The notes under the pieces were generated by a model. That model was not told the origin of the DNA. It was given only the letters and a program-made list of their open reading frames with translations, and did no database searches. DNA of 64,000 nucleotides, from positions 12,065 to 76,064 of the forward strand of contig JAGWOR010000006.1 in NCBI GenBank assembly GCA_028870845.1, given 5' to 3'. The DNA comes from Gammaproteobacteria bacterium. GTDB lineage: Bacteria; Pseudomonadota; Gammaproteobacteria; Natronospirales; REEB76. The first letter of the stretch is position 1. Every line of letters starts with the position of its first letter. A program made the position numbers and the translations under genes. Shown here one piece after another: positions 5,140 through 31,128 of this stretch.

Positions 5140-6189
5140 TCAGCTGTTCAGGAAATATTCCCGGAAAGCCTCAAGCACAGATTCAATATCCCGCGCGCTT
5201 ACATCCAGATGCGTCACCAACCGAAGCTTGGCACTGGCGAGTATTTTGATGCCGCTGGCTTGAAGCTGGCGGGCCAATGGCTGCACGTGTTGTGCGTCAA
5301 TGCCGGCAAACACCATGTTGGTCTGCACCGTCGCCGGATCAATCTGAATCTGGCTGATGTCTGACAAGCCGGTGGCCAGCTTTTTCGCGTTGGCATGATC
5401 TTCCGCCAGGCGCTCAATATTGTGTTCCAGGGCAAATAAACCGGCAGCCGCCAGCATGCCAGCCTGGCGCATGCCGCCGCCAAGGACCTTGCGGGCACGA
5501 TGCGCGCGCTTGATGAAGTCGTGGTCGCCCACCAGCACCGTGCCCACCGGGCAGCCCAAGCCCTTGGACAGGCATATGGAAACACTGTCGAAATGCCGGG
5601 TAATTTCACCCACCGGCACACCCAGTTTGACCGCTGCATTGAAAACCCGCGCGCCATCCAGATGCAGCTTCAAGCCATGTCCACGGGTAAAAGTACGCGC
5701 CTGTTTCAGGTAGTCCAGCGGCAGGACCCGGCCGTTCTGGGTGTTCTCCAAAACCAGCAGCCGGGTGTGGGGGAAATGCGCATCATCGGGTTTGATGGCG
5801 GCGGCGATTTTATTCAAGTCGAGGCTGCCATCCACCTGGTATTCGATCGGACAGGGCCAAAGGCTGCCAAGCACCGCCGCGCCGCCTGCTTCATATTTGA
5901 AGCTGTGACCCAGGCTACCGATCATGAACTCCTCGCCGCGCCCGCAATGTGACATGAGCGCTGCGAGGTTTGACTGGGTGCCGCTGGGAAAGAAAAGACC
6001 GGCCTGGTGGCCGGTCATTTCAGCAAGCTTTTCCTGCAGGCGGTTTACACTGGGGTCGTCACCGAACACGTCATCGCCCACCTCGGCGGCAGCCATGGCG
6101 GCGCGCATGGCGCTGCTGGGACGGGTCACCGTGTCGCTGCGCAGGTCGATCATAGGAGCGCTGCTGCCCTTCACACCTGTTTGCGACAA
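5140..6189 (-). CDS. ltaE: Low-specificity L-threonine aldolase
   Basis: Motifs IDLRSDTVTRP, GDDVFGDDPSVN and FPSGTQSNL. The start may instead be the internal Met at 6153 (MIDLRSD). Confidence 0.85.
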   Translation of the reverse strand: MSQTGVKGSSAPMIDLRSDTVTRPSSAMRAAMAAAEVGDDVFGDDPSVNRLQEKLAEMTGHQAGLFFPSGTQSNLAALMSHCGRGEEFMIGSLGHSFKYEAGGAAVLGSLWPCPIEYQVDGSLDLNKIAAAIKPDDAHFPHTRLLVLENTQNGRVLPLDYLKQARTFTRGHGLKLHLDGARVFNAAVKLGVPVGEITRHFDSVSICLSKGLGCPVGTVLVGDHDFIKRAHRARKVLGGGMRQAGMLAAAGLFALEHNIERLAEDHANAKKLATGLSDISQIQIDPATVQTNMVFAGIDAQHVQPLARQLQASGIKILASAKLRLVTHLDVSARDIESVLEAFREYFLNS

Positions 6190-6210: not shown

Positions 6211-6789
6211 TTACTGGCCCCCGCCTGGCGGGGATTTCTGGCCGCCCTTGGCAGCCTGCGCCTTCTTCATCTTGGCCCAATCCGCATTCAGGGCTTTGGT
6301 GACCGCATCGGTGATGTCGTAGTTGCTGGCTGCAAAGATAGCACCCGCTGCGCCCCGGCTCAGAATGAAGTCGTAATGATGAGCCCTGCCGTAAGCATCG
6401 ATCACCCGCATCATTTCCTGCTCGATGGGTTGCAGCAATTGCTGACGCTGTGCTTCCAGTTCCTGCTGGCCCAGCATGACGAACTGCTGGTACTCGTTTC
6501 TACTATCCTGAAAGCTCTTTTGTAGAGTCGCATAATCCTTGGATTTGCTGTCCGCTGTCTTTATTTGATCCTGAAGCACTTTCAGCTTCTGTTCCTTGTC
6601 GTTGGCCTGCCCCTGCAATTTATTCCGGAGAGCCACCATATCTTTTTGGGCGTCCTGTCCAGCCGTGGAATCGCTGAGGACCTGTTGCAAATTGACCGTC
6701 GCGATGCGCGGGGCATTCGCCGCTTGTGTCGTGGAAATTGCTAGGAACCCTGCCGCCAGCAGGCTGGCGGTGATAAATACATGACGCAT
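6211..6789 (-). CDS. OmpH/Skp-family periplasmic chaperone
   Basis: 192 aa. Signal peptide, then IATVNLQQVL and a long charged coiled-coil region (KLQGQANDKEQKLKVLQDQIK). Confidence 0.7.
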   Translation of the reverse strand: MRHVFITASLLAAGFLAISTTQAANAPRIATVNLQQVLSDSTAGQDAQKDMVALRNKLQGQANDKEQKLKVLQDQIKTADSKSKDYATLQKSFQDSRNEYQQFVMLGQQELEAQRQQLLQPIEQEMMRVIDAYGRAHHYDFILSRGAAGAIFAASNYDITDAVTKALNADWAKMKKAQAAKGGQKSPPGGGQ

Positions 6790-6912
6790 AATGGAATACT
6801 CCTGGGAAAGGTATATTGCTCCGCCGGGAAGCGGATATCATTTGTAAAGAACACCCGTGCCTTTAGGATAACGCACCGGCAGCTCCGCCGACCACTGTTC
6901 AGTGGCTGGGGT

Positions 6913-7317
6913 TTAGTCTTGCACGTGTATATTCACAAACAGGTTAATGGTAAACAGCGCTACCCCCAGTACTATCACGGCGGACGCCGCAATGGCGAGC
7001 TTCTCCAGCTGCGGATGGCCTGCCAAGGTAAAAAACAGGGAAAGCATGGCCACCGGCAGTGCCAGGTTATGCAGCCAAAAATGCCACAGCCCCAGGCGGC
7101 TGCCACCGGCCCGAGGAAACAGGTGGTAAATCACCCCAGCGAGGGCCATGCTGGCCCAGCCCAGCAGGTTGATATGGGCGTGAACCGGTATGAACTCAAA
7201 ATGCCTGCTGGCGGCCAAGGCCATGCCGAAAACCACCCCCACCAGCAGATACAGCACCGCCAGCTTGATCCAGAGTTGCGCCATGTGAAGACCGCGTGAT
7301 TCGATCGTGGTAGTCAT
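6913..7317 (-). CDS. Small 4-TM membrane protein with conserved His motif (HAHINLLGW)
   Basis: 134 aa with four hydrophobic segments. The His-rich helix is reminiscent of heme-copper-oxidase-like helices. Function unknown. Confidence 0.5.
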   Translation of the reverse strand: MTTTIESRGLHMAQLWIKLAVLYLLVGVVFGMALAASRHFEFIPVHAHINLLGWASMALAGVIYHLFPRAGGSRLGLWHFWLHNLALPVAMLSLFFTLAGHPQLEKLAIAASAVIVLGVALFTINLFVNIHVQD

Positions 7318-7478
7318 TCTAACTCCTTATAAAGCATGGCTTTTTAGTCCTGTACGGGCTTCTTGGTAACACCCGTTCTGCACGAATTCAATCTCCATCA
7401 CGGATTTCGCACTTAATGTTTGCCCTGCAGCGATGTCATACTGGGGGTCTGCCTGAATCATCCCTTTAGGAGTCTTTC

Positions 7479-10400
7479 ATGAACTGTCGCTGGTTTTCCC
7501 CAAAGTGGACTGGGCTTTTGCCGATGCTCGCCATGCTAGCCCTGTTGGCAGGCACCGCCCGCGCAAACGACACCCTCATGCGTTACCCGACCCTGCATGG
7601 AAATTCCGTGGTTTTCGAAGCCCATGGGAACTTGTGGAAAGTCAGCCGCAGCGGCGGTGAGGCCACCAGGTTAACCACCGATCCGGGCTTTGACATCATG
7701 CCGCGCTATTCACCGGACGGAAAATGGATCGCATTTACGGGCCAATACCAGGGAAATACCGACGTCTATATCATCCCGGCTGACGGCGGTAACGCCCGGC
7801 GCCTGACATACCACTCGGACGTGGTCGCAAGCGCGCCGCTGCGCTGGGGTCCGGACAATATGGTGGTGAGCTGGACGCCGGACGGCAAAAACATCGTGTT
7901 CCTGTCGCGCCGCACCACTTTCAACTCCTGGTTCGGCCAGCTGTTCGAGGTGCCGCTCAGCGGCGGCCTGCCGACCCAGCTGCCGATACCCAAGGGCGGC
8001 ATGCTCACCTATTCGCCGGACGGGAACTCCATCGCCTATAACCGCATTTTCCGCAATTTCCGCAGCTGGAAGCGCTATCACGGCGGCCTGGCCCAGGATG
8101 TGTGGCTGTACGATTTCGCCACCAAGAAAAGCACCCGCATCACCGATTATCCGGGCACGGACTCCGACCCCATGTGGTACGGTCACCTGATCTATTTCCT
8201 CTCGGACCGCGGTCCGGAGCAACGCAAAAATCTCTGGGTATATGACCTGGATAACAAGCAATTCCGCCAGGTCACGCATTTCAAGAATTACGACATCGAC
8301 TGGCCGAGCCTGGGGGATACCGGCATCGCGTTCCAGTGCGGCGGCAGTCTGTACGTTATGGACCTGCCGTCGGAACAATTGCACCGCATCAGTGTGGATG
8401 TGCCGGACGACGGTACGCGCACCGGCAGGCGCTGGGTGGATGAGTCCAAGTACCTGCAGACGATGGATACCGCCGGCGACACCAACCTAGCGCTATCGCC
8501 CAACGGCAAGCGCGCACTGCTGCAGGCGCGCGGCGACATCTGGTCGCTGCCCCGCGAGCATGGCCCGAGCCTGGATCTCACCCATACCTCAGACGCGGAG
8601 GAGGAATACCCCTCGTGGTCGCCGGACGGCAAATGGATTGCCTATGCCACCGATGCCAGCGGTGAGGACCAACTCGCCATCCGGCCCGCAGACGGCACCG
8701 GCAGCCAGCAAATCCTCACGGATTTCAAATCCGGCTATTTCTACGGCCCGAGCTGGTCTCCGGGCAGCGACAAAATGGCGTTCTCCGATAACCAGCACCG
8801 GTTGTGGATCCTGGACGTCAAGAGCCGCAAGCTCACCGACGTGGCCCAGGACAAATACAACGAAATGCATGATTTCAGCTGGTCACCGGACGGCCGCTGG
8901 CTGGCCTACAGCATCACCGCGCCGAACCAGATGCGCCAGATATATCTGTACAACCTGGCGCAGGGCAAAGCCACGCTCGTCAGCTCACCCATGGACAACG
9001 ACATGAACCCGGTATTCGATCCCGAGGGCCAATACCTGTACTTTGTGTCGGCGCGCCACGAGAACCCGACATTCAGTGAATCTGAATTCAACATCGCCAC
9101 GCTCAAGATGCTGGGTGTGTACGTGACCACGCTGCGCAAGGATGAGCCCTCGCCGTTCGCGCCCCGCAACGACGAAGGCACGCTTTCCGCAAAGAAGCAA
9201 GCGCAACCCGGCGAATGGAAACCGGGCAACAGCAAGCCCATCCAGATTGACCTCGACGGGTTGATGGGGCGCGCGGTGCCGCTGCCGATCCCGGCGGCCA
9301 ATATCAGCGGCCTGGCCGCCACCCCCGGCCAGGTGTTCTACAGCACCGTGCCCAATCAGATGATCGACGGTCCCTTGCCGGGCACGCAGCCGGAGCTGCA
9401 CGTCTATGCTCTCGCCAAGCGCGAAGACAAAGTACTGGGCAGCGGATTCTATGGCTGGACGCTGTCAGCCGACGGCTCGACCATCCTCTATAGCACTCCC
9501 GATAACAAACTGTTCACCATGGACGCCAAGCCCGACGCCAAGCCCGCACCGCTCGACACATCACACATGTGGGCGGGAATCAATCCGGTCCAGGAATGGA
9601 ACGAGATGTACCAGATGACCTGGCGTCTGTACCGGGATTTCTTCGTCAACCGCGAGATGAACGGCGTGAACTGGAACGCGGTGCGCGCCCAATACGCCAA
9701 GCTGCTGCCGCTCATGGGCTCGCGTGAGGACCTGAACTATCTCATCGGCCAGACCATCGGCGAGCTGTCCAACTCCCACACTTATGTGGGGGGTGGCGAC
9801 GTGGGCTACGATGTACACCGCACGCCCACCGGGCTGTTGGGCGTGGACTTCGGCCTGGACAGGAACAGCGGGCGGTATTATTTCGCGAAGATTTATCCCG
9901 GCGACAATACCCGTGAAAACTATCGTTCGCCCCTGACCGAGCCGGGAGTGAACGTTAAGGCCGGCGATTACCTGCTGGCGGTGAATGGCCACGAACTCAG
10001 GGCGCCCACCAACCCCTACAGCCTATTCGTGGGCACCACCAACCAGGATGTATGGCTTACGGTGGCCGATGACGCCGGCGGCAAAAACCTCCGCCGTATC
10101 CTGGTAAGGACCATCCCCAACGAGCTGGACATCCGCCTCAAGGCCTGGATCGACCATAACCGCGAGGAGGTCAACCGGCTATCGGATGGCAAGGTCGGAT
10201 ACATCTACCTGTCCGACATGGAAGCCCAGGGCATGGATCAGTTCATCCGCCAGTTCTACCCGCAACTCACCAAGCAGGGCCTGATCATCGACGATCGCTG
10301 GAACGGCGGCGGCTTCATCGACCAGATCGTGCTGGAACGGCTGCGGCGCATCCTCATCGGCATGAACAGCAACCGCGAACGGGTGGCTTCGCCCATACCT

Positions 10401-11951: not shown

Positions 11952-12650
11952 TCAGGCAAGCATTTGCGAGATGCGTTTGTGCAGCGGGCTGGTGCGCGGG
12001 AAATGCGCCAGCAGGAATTCCATCTGGTCAGCAAGGATCCGCCGCCCCTTGAGGAAAATATACTCGGCATGGTTGGGAGTGAATGGCACCGCCAGCAGCT
12101 GCATGCCCGATTCTTCCGGTGTGCGCCCGGCCTTGTGGTTGTTGCAGCGCTTGCAGGCCGCCACCACGTTGTTCCAGGCATCCGTGCCGCCACGACTCAA
12201 TGGCGTCACGTGCTCGCGCGACAATTCACGCGCGGAAAAGCGCTGTCCGCAATACATGCACAAGTTAGCATCACGTTTGAATAAGGTATGGTTGTTGAGC
12301 GGCGGTACGTAATGTTCACGGGCTTTGGCGAGCGCATGATTGTTGCCGTAGGTGGCAATTATGGAATTGACATCGACGCTACTCTGCCGCCCGGTTATCG
12401 CGCAGATGCCGCCGTGCAGCCGGTACAGGAGTGTGCCGCAACTATAGGCAACCTGTTCGAGGTAATACAGCTTGACGGCGTCTTCATAACCGATCCACTC
12501 CAGCGGCATGCCGGCAGCATCGGTGCGCAATACATCTTGAGAAAGGTCGTACACAAAGGCCGCCACTAAAGCATTGCAAGGGGCAAATGTTATTGCAGAA
12601 TTTATCTTAAAAAGCAACGCTAACCCTTTCGGGTTATAGGTTTTACTCAT
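11952..12650 (-). CDS. HNH endonuclease family protein
   Basis: Motif CMYCG...SREHVTPLSRGG.DAWNNVVAACKRCNNHK. I prefer the internal ATG at 12650 (MSKTYNP) to the track start at 12701. Confidence 0.7.
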   Translation of the reverse strand: MSKTYNPKGLALLFKINSAITFAPCNALVAAFVYDLSQDVLRTDAAGMPLEWIGYEDAVKLYYLEQVAYSCGTLLYRLHGGICAITGRQSSVDVNSIIATYGNNHALAKAREHYVPPLNNHTLFKRDANLCMYCGQRFSARELSREHVTPLSRGGTDAWNNVVAACKRCNNHKAGRTPEESGMQLLAVPFTPNHAEYIFLKGRRILADQMEFLLAHFPRTSPLHKRISQMLA

Positions 12651-29391: not shown

Positions 29392-29419
29392 TTGCATAAA
29401 ATGCTGCTAAAGTTATGAT
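29392..29419 (+). promoter_or_regulatory. Candidate sigma70 promoter TTGCAT-N16-TATGAT immediately upstream of the intron 5' end
   Basis: -35 at 29392-29397 and -10 at 29414-29419. The -10 overlaps IBS2/IBS1, and the predicted start site falls at about the first intron nucleotides. Motif match only. Confidence 0.35.
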
Positions 29420-30041
29420 GCTAGTGCGACGAGAGTCGCGTGGGCAGTTGGCCCCATCCGCAACAGCGGGATAGCCATCTGAGCATGCGGTGCAAGCCGT
29501 GTAGGTAATTGTCTGGCAGCAGCAATTGGCTGTCCAGACCCGCCGTGCTATCGGCGGTAGCTGAGGGAAAGGTGCGTGGTGAGTAATCGCCAGGTGCCAA
29601 GCTTTCCTAAATGTAGCCATCCTGCGGGATACAGTCTGTCCCGCGAGGGATAGTGCTGTGCGACTGGTAGCCACAAGCCGGTCAAGGCGCTAGGCTTCGG
29701 TATGTGGGGAAAGTATTGAACTGCTGTTAAATGTCGTTATAACTAACGGGCCCAAGTGGCTGTTAGGCCCGACCCAAAACGGGAAGTGAACGAGATGCAT
29801 CCTTTAGCATTGGGTGCACATAGCTAAATATAGTTCACCGGCAAAAAGGCAGTCCCCAACAACTGGCGTTACCTATACGGAACTCGGTAAAAAAAAATGC
29901 TGAGGGTAATCCGCAGCGCTATTGGCTGGACCGGGTGATCCACCGCTATGGGGAAACCGTCCTGGGTGAGTATGCCGTCAAGGGGGCCCTGGTGACGGAG
30001 CTCACGTTAGCTGGCCCGGCAGGCCTTGAAAAGTGATCTGG

Positions 30042-30050
30042 TGATACAAT
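30042..30050 (+). promoter_or_regulatory. Candidate extended -10 promoter (TGATACAAT) inside the intron, upstream of the small-ORF cassette
   Basis: TGnTACAAT match. TTGAAA at 30026-30031 is too close (13-nt spacer) to be a proper -35. About 155 nt upstream of ORF1. Confidence 0.35.
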
Positions 30051-30206
30051 ATGTTTTATAAAGGCTGGCCCGGCTGAATGCGTAAGTATAAACAGGGCAT
30101 AGTGCATGGCCCTCTGGGGATCTTTCGGTCCCGCAGAGGGACTGAACGGTACTCCGAGCCATGGTCAATCAATGGCCCCGCCGATGGCGGGAATTAGGAG
30201 CGCCAA

Positions 30207-30401
30207 ATGAGGCTAAATAAGGCCCAGCGAGAAACGATGGCGAAAGCGGCGGAAAATATCGGCACACTGTTGATAGGCGCTGTTTTCGTTCAGGAGTTAT
30301 TTGGGAAGAAACCTATTGGGGCATGGTCTGCAGTAATTGGTGTTGGAATGGCGATTATTTCTTATGTTGCAGCAATCTGGTTAAGGAGGAAAGAGTCATG
30401 A
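30207..30401 (+). CDS. Small membrane protein (64 aa, about 2 TM), cargo ORF1 inside intron domain IV
   Basis: AGGAG lies 6 nt before the ATG. Sequence MRLNKAQRETMAKAAENIGTLLIGAVFVQELFGKKPIGAWSAVIGVGMAIISYVAAIWLRRKES. AT-richer than its surroundings. No family recognised. Confidence 0.6.
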   Translation: MRLNKAQRETMAKAAENIGTLLIGAVFVQELFGKKPIGAWSAVIGVGMAIISYVAAIWLRRKES

Positions 30402-30517
30402 GTTTTACTGCACTGACAATATTAGTCGGCTGTCTCGTGATTGCCGGAGCAGTGGTGGTTGACTACCTCTCTCGTCCCCATGGGCACAAAGAGCAAAACG
30501 AACGGCACCAGCATTAA
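30398..30517 (+). CDS. Small membrane protein (39 aa, 1 TM), cargo ORF2, translationally coupled to ORF1
   Basis: AAGGAGGA lies 7 nt before the ATG at 30398, and an ATGA overlap joins it to the ORF1 stop. Sequence MSFTALTILVGCLVIAGAVVVDYLSRPHGHKEQNERHQH. Confidence 0.55.
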   Translation: MSFTALTILVGCLVIAGAVVVDYLSRPHGHKEQNERHQH

Positions 30518-30934
30518 ACAGACCGTTTCGTAATCAAAACAAACCCGGCCGCCGAAAGCGGCCGGGTTCTTATGAAGGGTTTATGGCTGTTTTCGGCCAG
30601 TCGAACCCCAATCCGGCGCCATCGGAAGATCATGGGGGAGGCTAACCCCTTTGATCCGGCTTGGACTGCATACTTTGAGGCCCGTAATGGGGCGAATATG
30701 CAAAGGGTTCTGGCCCACCGGCCCAGGCACCTGTACCTTTGGAAACGGCAGGCGGGGCGATGCCCACAATGTCGGGCCCTGATCACTCAGGCGACCGGCT
30801 GGCACCGACACCACCTGCTGCCCAAGGGCCAGATGGGCAGGGAGGCATTGGCCAATCAATGCCTTCTCCACCCCAACTGTCACAGGCAATGGCATATACT
30901 TACGCGAGAAAGCTGCGGTATAACCTTAAGTTAG
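30518..30934 (+). pseudogene. Remnant of the group II intron reverse transcriptase/maturase (C-terminal DNA-binding/HNH endonuclease tail only)
   Basis: The open frame reads ...KGLWLFSASRTPIRRHRKIMGEANPFDPAWTAYFEAR...CPQCRALITQATGWHRHHLLPKGQMG...LLHPNCHRQWH, typical of the extreme C-terminus of an intron-encoded protein. No RT motifs occur anywhere upstream. The stop is 20 nt before domain V. Confidence 0.8.
30542..30573 (+). terminator. Hairpin terminator after the cassette
   Basis: AACCCGGCCGC-CGAAA-GCGGCCGGGTT (11-bp stem) followed by CTTAT. The U-tract is weak. Confidence 0.55.
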
Positions 30935-30953
30935 GTTATGCTTAGAGCGGCTT

Positions 30954-31028
30954 GAGCCGGATGCGGGGTAACCCGCATGTCCGGTTCTTAGGGGGGAGGG
31001 CAGCCATGAGGATCCCCTCCTACCCGAC
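30954..31028 (+). ncRNA. Group II intron domains V and VI
   Basis: DV is GAGCCGGATGCGGGGTAACCCGCATGTCCGGTTC (34 nt), with the AGC triad, a GUAA tetraloop and a 2-nt GU bulge on the 3' strand. DV folds exactly as the canonical structure. In DVI, GGAGGG pairs with CCCTCC and there is a single bulged A 6 nt before the 3' end. Confidence 0.9.
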
Positions 31029-31128
31029 TTAACAAGTTGCCCGGCAGCTCCGCCATCACAGGAGACCCGCCACCGCGGGAGGGCCTGGAAACCGTGGGGA
31101 TTTGTCAGGCGAGTCGTGGAGAGCTCCA

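Follow-up and report, generated by a model that had tools for sequence, protein, structure and literature searches.

Probable Relic of a Group II Intron in a Gammaproteobacterium, Its Interior Replaced by Foreign DNA with an Operon for Two Small Membrane Proteins

The stretch of DNA analyzed here, 64,000 nucleotides long and hereafter called the window (positions 12,065 to 76,064 of contig JAGWOR010000006.1, assembly GCA_028870845.1, from a gammaproteobacterium of the Natronospirales), contains a group II intron at 29424-31028, in the spacer between def, which lies on the minus strand, and the LysM-dprA-smg operon. The interior of this intron is missing, and the gap is filled by 674 nt of foreign DNA (29897-30571) in which the tail of a small gene of plasmid type is followed by a promoter, a leader of ~150 nt, two short open reading frames (ORF1 and ORF2) and a terminator. 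In the reading that we consider probable, the intron is a dead relic and its insert is mobile DNA bearing an independent membrane-protein module; more tentatively, we suggest a toxin-like function for ORF1. An earlier inspection of the sequence (the original prediction) had described a gene cassette at 30042-30573 in the place of the reverse transcriptase (RT) of the intron; the motifs, reading frames, Shine-Dalgarno (SD) sequences, ATGA overlap and hairpin that it listed are all in the sequence, and the cassette does occupy the place of the RT, but the foreign segment begins at ~29897, not at 30042, and its arrival removed ribozyme domains as well. The features of the intron and its insert are as follows.

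29424..29890 (+): 5' end of the intron (GTGCG) and domain I; RF02012; collinearity with full-length relatives ends at ...GGAACTCGGTA
29889..29897 (+): nine consecutive A at the left junction, of which approximately six are found in neither parent (filler)
29897..30036 (+): 3' fragment of a foreign small gene, ~46 codons ending in ...NPQRYWLDRVIHRYGETVLGEYAVKGALVTELTLAGPAGLEK and a stop codon; 84% amino acid identity to an ORF of locus L022
30042..30050 (+): predicted extended -10 promoter, TGATACAAT; counterparts are TGCTACAAT in L022, TGCTATAAT in L001 and TATTATAAT in L020 (positional equivalents in L001 and L020)
30057..30206 (+): structured 5' leader, with a GNRA hairpin, a CAUGG/CCAUG hairpin, a pre-SD hairpin and two alternative SD-pairing helices
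30207..30401 (+): ORF1, 64 aa, predicted helical-hairpin membrane protein; AGGAG (30196-30200) lies 6 nt before its ATG at 30207
30398..30517 (+): ORF2, 39 aa, with a single transmembrane (TM) segment and a His-rich tail ending in ERHQH; its SD, AAGGAGGA (30383-30390), lies 7 nt before the ATG at 30398, which overlaps the end of ORF1 (ATGA)
30542..30571 (+): intrinsic terminator hairpin with an 11-bp GC stem (30542-30552 / 30558-30568) and a shortened U-tract
30572..30934 (+): C-terminal remnant of the intron-encoded protein, with the end of the DNA-binding region and an HNH endonuclease domain, and no RT domain
30952..31028 (+): domains V and VI and 3' end of the intron, ...CCTACCCGAC; RF00029, 64.5 bits

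What Remains of the Intron

Both ends of the intron are precise, with GTGCG at 29424 and ...CCTACCCGAC (...GAC) at 31028, and its identity as a group II intron, already part of the original prediction, is borne out by matches to Rfam RF02012 on 29539-29689 (94.6 bits) and to RF00029, the family of domains V/VI, which together cover only domain I and domains V/VI. The frame of the intron-encoded protein (IEP) resumes at 30572-30575, directly after the terminator hairpin, as had also been proposed, and runs on as an ORF of 120 aa that comprises approximately the last 115 codons of the IEP, contains the HNH domain (Pfam, E 3.5e-5) and is 55% identical to the C-terminus of intron-encoded proteins (comparison with P0004). 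A scan of species-representative genomes with this protein remnant yielded 80 full-length relatives of the intron. A profile of the IEP built from 53 full-length relatives, run on all six frames of 29400-31060, matched only between its positions 477 and 602 of 621, that is, at the C-terminus, and neither this profile nor tblastn with the RT part of a relative found RT motifs in any of the six frames of this interval.

The nearest relatives by DNA are L054, L051 and L059 (we number the comparison loci from L001), each of which has both Rfam matches; the IEP of L054, the locus where ORFs were listed, has 576 aa. The window is collinear with these three loci for 467 nt, the alignment ending at ~29890 with ...GGAACTCGGTA, beyond which the relatives have ~270 nt of helices showing compensatory changes, followed by an SD and a start codon, none of which is present in the window. 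The lost ~270 nt correspond to domains II and III together with the 5' part of domain IV, a stretch conserved in every close relative. The total loss of intron amounts to ~1.6 kb, including ~460 codons of the reverse transcriptase. With domains of the ribozyme gone that matter for catalysis, the intron should neither splice nor move and, judged by its sequence, is a dead relic.

The chimeric intron is known from one locus only. A sister assembly (L011; GCA_028869905.1, contig JAGWQV010000069.1) has the same arrangement at the same locus and is 99.8% identical to the window from 30309 onward. The contig of L011 starts at that very position, inside ORF1, possibly because the cassette is repeated in that genome (for instance as a second copy outside an intron) or because of low coverage; elsewhere in the window there is no second copy of the intron, of the cassette or of the plasmid-type gene. 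As a separate observation, a sigma-70-like TTGCAT-N16-TATGAT lies at 29393-29423, abutting the 5' end of the intron; if this promoter were active, its transcript would begin with, or within, the first few nucleotides of the intron and thus have no 5' exon to splice.

Make-up and Borders of the Insert

The left junction falls exactly on the boundary between domains I and II. With the point of divergence marked by a slash, the relatives of the intron read GGGTA/AGCCCG and L022 reads ...GACCGGG/ATGCTGAGGG. The right junction, at 30571/30572, cuts the U-tract of the terminator, the window reading GGGTTCTT/A-TGAAGG where L001 goes on with TTCTTTTT. Between these borders the insert is a mosaic. Window positions 29897-30075 are ~90% identical in nucleotides to L022, whose context is not that of an intron, there being an IS3 OrfA fragment upstream of the shared piece; past 30075 the two diverge, with leaders ~80% identical and ORF1 proteins only 55% identical. 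Positions 30060-30571, in turn, are 96.9% identical to L001, to which no other part of the window is similar and with which homology ends at 30571. The left part of the insert is therefore L022-like and the right part L001-like, with the crossover in the shared AAAGGCTGGCCCGGC (~30060-30075), so the border with L001 at 30060 marks recombination between cassette variants, which evidently recombine with each other.

Homologs of the truncated small gene follow genes for SNF2/DEAD helicases on plasmids of Thiodictyon, Rhodanobacter, Ralstonia, Xanthomonas and others (tblastn E down to 6e-10). On the Thiodictyon and Rhodanobacter plasmids (L023:3001-3180 and L024:2977-3204) they belong to an unannotated family of hypothetical proteins of ~75 aa, near WGR-domain and PRTRC genes. 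The foreign and self-contained character of the cassette, as originally proposed, holds: besides the nearly identical copy outside introns in L001, the GC content is 47.6% over the ORFs versus 59.3% for the whole window, and the module has ~52% GC in hosts whose flanking DNA ranges from 53% to 68%. Two simpler descriptions of the block have been given up. It is not exactly one transcript, as L022 shows foreign DNA reaching 160 nt upstream of the promoter; nor is it an integron cassette, an idea prompted by its sharp borders, for the hairpin at its 3' end is not an attC but a terminator, with a perfect GC stem in which changes are compensated, and core sites are missing.

A Conserved Operon under a Structured Leader

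ORF1 is laid out as an N-terminal amphipathic helix that runs into TM1 and is followed by TM2, and its AlphaFold model (pLDDT 86.7) has helices at residues 5-32 and 39-61; the His-rich tail of ORF2 reads HGHKEQNERHQH. An exhaustive HMMER search of 1.84 billion representative proteins returned eight representatives of the ORF1 family, and a profile search of a collection of 5.8 billion clusters returned 14 clusters, all from uncultured bacteria. The family members have 61-72 aa and share K.Q.ET.AK..EN.GTLL.G ... AIWLRR. No homolog of ORF1 or of the cassette was found in 72,556 plasmids, 50,697 phages, viral contigs or 185,579 species-representative genomes.

Selection has acted on both proteins, the ratio of nonsynonymous to synonymous substitution (dN/dS, Nei-Gojobori) being 0.10-0.22 in ORF1 and 0.08-0.42 in ORF2; in either case the synonymous sites are close to saturated. 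The promoter position, leader, both ORFs, ATGA overlap and terminator are kept in six other loci; across all seven loci, which represent four to five lineages, the SD, the overlap, the terminator hairpin and a 39-aa ORF2 ending in ERHQH persist, and the length, overlap and C-terminus of ORF2 are identical in L001, L009, L012, L020 and L021. Changes in the terminator stem are fully compensated in L009, L020 and L021. By these comparisons ORF1 and ORF2 are a genuine operon, and ORF2, whose own strong SD lies inside the end of ORF1 and whose start overlaps its stop (ATGA), would be produced along with ORF1. That both are real genes without a named family, as anticipated, agrees with the 14 clusters and with dN/dS values of 0.1-0.4 overall. 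Matches to the geobacillin-26 C-terminus, MscK, SLATT_3 and holins stay below threshold in Pfam, PHROGs, NCBIfam and PADLOC, and we treat them as noise from transmembrane segments; Foldseek with the ORF1 model gave nothing below E 0.3 in PDB or BFVD. A lipoprotein nature of ORF2, suggested by LVGC, was rejected since the Cys is not conserved.

More distant relatives show ORF1 with other partners. The plasmid-like L015 has a 37-aa ORF2-like partner with a YLSR motif (…KYLSRDSGEDQAHRSD). A distant ORF1 subfamily (36-39% identity; L017:2952-3346, L018:5771-6186 and L014:2-294) is devoid of ORF2 and is preceded, 11 nt upstream, by a highly charged ORF of 62-72 aa that belongs to no Pfam family; it sits 2 kb from Tn7-like tnsA-tnsB-tnsC-tniQ genes or beside IS transposases. 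In L015 (6001-6312, a JGI contig with type IV pilus and shufflon-like genes) a frameshift divides the ORF1 homolog into frames of 63 and 47 aa; this copy may be a pseudogene, or its sequence may contain an error.

Conservation is higher in the leader than in the coding sequence: the core of the leader is largely retained over seven sequences, and a run of 31 nt is invariant in the alignment of the window with L001 and L009, even though synonymous sites are saturated. The seven-sequence alignment supports about equally two mutually exclusive folds. In each, 93-97% of the cells are paired and six pairs are changed on both sides, and none of 500 shuffles reached the observed score; slid controls had only 31-47% of their cells paired. 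Three hairpins are common to both folds, one GNRA-capped, one formed by CAUGG/CCAUG and one just before the SD, the last with three different sequences. The SD of ORF1 is paired in both folds, with a CUCC (~30150-30153) or a CUCU (~30112-30115) segment, in 91-100% of the cells. With the SD sequestered either way, translation of ORF1 would normally be blocked and released by a signal, by processing or by refolding. In an E-value-mode scan Rfam gave nothing above ~17 bits or with E<1 for this leader, nor for those of L001 and L009.

Copies Outside Introns

Close homologs of ORF1 occur in further metagenomes. In L001, a gammaproteobacterial metagenome-assembled genome (MAG), the cassette is flanked by lexA and a hipBA toxin-antitoxin pair, and intron RNA is absent from its vicinity; the arrangement recurs in seven more contigs (L002-L008). 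All other cassette loci are likewise free of intron RNA. A blastn comparison of the whole intron region with the 80 relatives returned only ribozyme and C-terminal IEP segments, with no match to the insert, and the Rfam matches on seven of these 80 loci are confined to intron domains. The neighborhood of L001 includes a CTGT-N8-ACAG box at 5452-5467, which belongs to lexA, and hipBA at 6771-8326. Control of the cassette by LexA was considered and discarded, the box being lexA's own, ~400 bp away, and none being visible at the cassette promoter.

In four loci (L009, L012, L020 and L021) 24-nt terminal inverted repeats (CTAGCCGTTCAGTTAAGGTGTTGA), ~600 nt apart, flank the operon and delimit an element of ~650 bp without a transposase. 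L020 (1365-1397 / 1997-2029) has a perfect 9-bp target duplication, AGTAAGCAG, and L021 (299-347 / 943-992) has GGCTTAAAGC on both sides, the duplications measuring 9-10 bp across loci. The anatomy of this element is that of a mobile insertion cassette, in other words a miniature inverted-repeat transposable element (MITE) with passenger genes, as can be seen in full in L020 and L021 and at the right ends of L009 and L012. When the target of L021 is reconstructed, it is the loop of a terminator hairpin (GAAGGCCGGCTTAAAGCCGGCCTTC), and the elements of L012 and L021 stand in opposite orientation beside the same DUF4826-like gene. The transposon from which the repeats derive, with a transposase that could move the element, was not found in plasmids, viral contigs or the comparison loci. 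Remnants of such repeats were also sought around the copies of the window, L001 and L022, where local alignments were no better than those of shuffled sequences.

Other members of the family adjoin Tn7-like, IS and plasmid genes; no neighbor is conserved, and each locus has an unrelated setting of its own in which mobile elements are frequent. By its distribution, the operon is an independent, horizontally moving module, for which the intron is only one landing place. This overturns a further suggestion, that the cassette might travel with the ribozyme: its 97% identical twin stands next to lexA and hipBA without any intron, and the insert is missing from the 80 related introns.

How Did the Chimera Arise?

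One replacement event would have removed domains II and III, the 5' part of domain IV and ~460 codons of the IEP, and left 674 nt of DNA from a foreign mobile element in their stead. By what route did this occur? To a route through DNA we give an even chance: transposition or illegitimate recombination would have brought foreign DNA of a mobile element into the intron, both would then have been trimmed by at least one deletion, and the features of the junctions would be accidental. Versions of the cassette clearly recombine as DNA, as the change from L022-like to L001-like sequence at ~30060-30075 attests, relatives of the cassette transpose as inverted-repeat elements, and truncated or fragmented group II introns are common in bacteria (PMC4181065, PMC4028801). 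This route is weakened by the lack of inverted repeats, target duplication or transposon ends at either junction, and by the need for several events to produce two clean junctions.

The other route, possible but in our view doubtful, passes through RNA and involves two template switches of the intron reverse transcriptase during retromobility. Synthesis of cDNA would have started from the intron 3' end; while still within the IEP coding region, the enzyme would have left this template for the 3' end of a read-through transcript, terminated and containing the foreign gene and the cassette, and from there it would have moved to the 3' end of an oligo(A)-tailed RNA fragment of domain I. Group II intron RTs do switch templates efficiently to RNA 3' ends in vitro. 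The right junction coincides with the end of the terminator U-tract, at 30571/30572, where L001 continues with TTCTTTTT; the approximately six A found in neither parent stand exactly at the boundary of domains I and II; and both intron ends are precise. In a relative of the intron, L071, moreover, the exact 3' end of one copy (…CTACCCGAC) passes straight into the middle of the IEP that belongs to the following copy, the signature expected of a jump to an RNA 3' end. On the other hand, this is a single case whose junction features may be coincidence, hairpins and runs of A are also hot spots of illegitimate recombination between DNA molecules, the U-tract that is retained is short, a read-through transcript including the promoter region is required, and no second example with an RNA other than that of the intron was found here. 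Insertion followed by deletion at the DNA level is at least as likely as an RNA origin.

The arrangement in L071, from a MAG of Pelomicrobium sp. (positions 100-300 and 1420-1600), deserves a description of its own. The exact 3' end of copy 1 (...CTGCTACCCGAC) is joined to the middle of the IEP (RPMRASRDA..., in the RT part) of a 5'-truncated copy 2, which ends with the same domains V and VI and then the exon; the junction has the appearance of a template switch in which an excised intron RNA was taken up at its 3' end.

What the Operon May Do

Our preferred reading, that of a dead intron with a foreign mobile insert, extends to a function that we hold more tentatively, with about a third of our credence. 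ORF1 would be a membrane-active, toxin-like effector whose synthesis is normally blocked by the leader; ORF2 would be its obligatory partner, either a modulator or antidote or a co-subunit; and the two together would form a selfish (addiction-like) module of mobile elements, or one serving in stress or defense. This proposal draws on the SD that is always sequestered, on an ORF1 that stays constant while its partners are exchanged, on the neighborhood of mobile DNA and hipBA, on the frameshifted ORF1 of L015 and, weakly, on the sub-threshold matches to 2TM effector and SLATT models. The toxin, immunity, holin or abortive-infection roles suggested in the original prediction may also apply. For a phage holin/antiholin pair, PHROG holins match only at E ~0.08-0.09, no lysin gene adjoins any copy, and phage genomes and viral contigs gave no match. 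The synonymous sites in the 5' region of ORF1 are not conserved.

About equally likely is a benign accessory operon, for example one encoding regulators or subunits of transporters or respiratory complexes or serving a metal or ion role, with the leader acting as a riboregulator that senses a ligand or temperature. The high conservation of the leader and its two exclusive, equally supported folds are riboswitch-like, the His-rich tail of ORF2 would suit such a role, both genes are under purifying selection and no antitoxin RNA was found. Yet no conserved genes for transporters or complexes adjoin the operon, whose contexts vary and abound in mobile elements, the leader matches no Rfam family, and the composition and mobility of the module point to a selfish element. 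Unlikely, in turn, is the boldest combination of these ideas, namely that template switching by the RT retro-transduced a complete cassette which represents a mobile module of a new class, with a membrane toxin-like pair controlled by a leader RNA, itself new, that sequesters the SD.

Several points weigh against the reading we prefer. The copies in the window and in L001 have no inverted repeats, and most of the comparison contigs are short metagenome fragments; the loss of splicing is deduced from the domains that are absent; and the leader statistics come from seven sequences of ~5 lineages. The guess at function is weakened by family matches that all lie below threshold and by structure searches without significant match, and also because neither an antisense RNA promoter nor another antitoxin signal was found. 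The scan of the minus strand inside the cassette gave no promoter-like site, although a trans-encoded sRNA may exist.

Two further alternatives concern the intron itself. Very improbable is a functional ORF-less intron that carries the cassette in domain IV and is spread by an RT acting in trans. Domains V and VI and the canonical 5' GUGYG and 3' AY ends are present, as is domain I, and the cassette occupies the place of domain IV and the IEP; but the ribozyme core is incomplete without domains II and III, conserved like the 5' part of domain IV in close relatives, the RT/maturase is no longer encoded, and the chimera occurs at one locus, with the cassette intron-less elsewhere and the insert unmatched among the 80 related introns. 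The idea of cargo replacing the IEP of a working intron, which was part of the original prediction, accordingly fails, since the same replacement took ~270 nt of conserved ribozyme. That the ORFs are chance frames in a decayed RT gene, a check proposed from the outset, has practically no chance of being right: their small size is all that would suggest it, and it conflicts with the lack of RT similarity in every frame, the homologs outside introns, dN/dS of 0.1-0.4 and the conserved length, overlap and SD.

What It Means

In its most ordinary form, our reading adds another decayed retroelement with nested mobile DNA, and with it a warning for annotation, as a match to an ORF-less intron does not amount to a working intron. 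The cassette is of wider interest: it represents a rare, uncharacterized operon family, encountered only in uncultured bacteria, that encodes two tiny membrane proteins and lends itself to study as a possible new module of the toxin type or of small-protein regulation. Its leader, unusually conserved, with two folds and the ribosome-binding site paired in both, is a candidate for a new cis-regulatory RNA, and in some lineages the operon forms a small inverted-repeat element that inserts into terminator hairpins. Gene shuffling by transduction of transcripts is known so far for eukaryotic retroelements and retroviruses. If the junctions in the window were indeed made at RNA 3' ends, they would be natural evidence that the RTs of bacterial group II introns can transduce foreign transcripts.

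Comparison with Known Systems

Remnants of RmInt1-type group II introns have been described in Sinorhizobium (PMC4181065), and truncations are frequent (PMC4028801). Like these, the intron of the window keeps its ribozyme ends, has lost the RT, persists as a single immobile copy in an intergenic region and belongs to a mobile family with full-length relatives; unlike these, its interior has been replaced by 674 nt of mobile DNA with an intact operon that looks expressed, and its junctions resemble RNA 3' ends. Cargo in domain IV is carried by engineered targetrons (PMC8524655), which the window resembles in having foreign genes inside domain IV at the position of the IEP ORF. Targetrons, however, keep all six domains and receive the IEP in trans, whereas the intron of the window has no domains II and III and is not expected to retrohome; a literature search for natural cargo in domain IV found engineered cases only.

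The copies with terminal repeats belong with mobile insertion cassettes or MITEs with passenger genes (PMC4337579, PMC2266710). In L009, L012, L020 and L021 the operon has the 24-nt terminal inverted repeats, the target duplications of 9-10 bp and the lack of a transposase that typify such elements, but its passenger genes encode two tiny membrane proteins under the control of a leader, and the copy in the window is devoid of repeats.

Type I toxin mRNAs such as those of hok/sok, tisB/istR and aapA1/isoA1 encode a small hydrophobic protein behind a structured 5' untranslated region that occludes the SD, in some cases with a coupled frame (mok/hok), and are found on mobile elements. The operon is similar to them in its small hydrophobic ORF1, its long leader pairing with the SD, its coupled second frame, its frequent horizontal transfer and its residence in mobile elements. 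It differs in that no antisense RNA gene was detected, in that ORF1 has two helices and 64 aa, and in that ORF2 is a separate, conserved TM protein rather than a frame in the leader; the likeness is one in the way of working and not of membership, as there is no sequence similarity to known families. With 2TM effectors of the SLATT type (NCBIfam NF033610; PADLOC 2TM), ORF1 shares an N-terminal helix followed by two TM helices, although the best matches are far below threshold (E 0.098 for SLATT_3, in four of 15 members, and 0.026 for PADLOC 2TM, in one of 15) and no gene for a sensor or for nucleotide signaling is present.

Chimeras made by template switching are exemplified by LINE-1/U6 chimeric retrogenes and by retroviral transduction. 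No bacterial group II intron is known to us to have captured a non-intron transcript in nature, and a literature search found no documented case. Template jumping by the RTs of non-LTR elements and group II introns has been demonstrated in vitro (PMC8857657). As in such chimeras, the junctions of the window coincide with what would be RNA 3' ends, and what may be a foreign transcript lies embedded in the copy of a retroelement.

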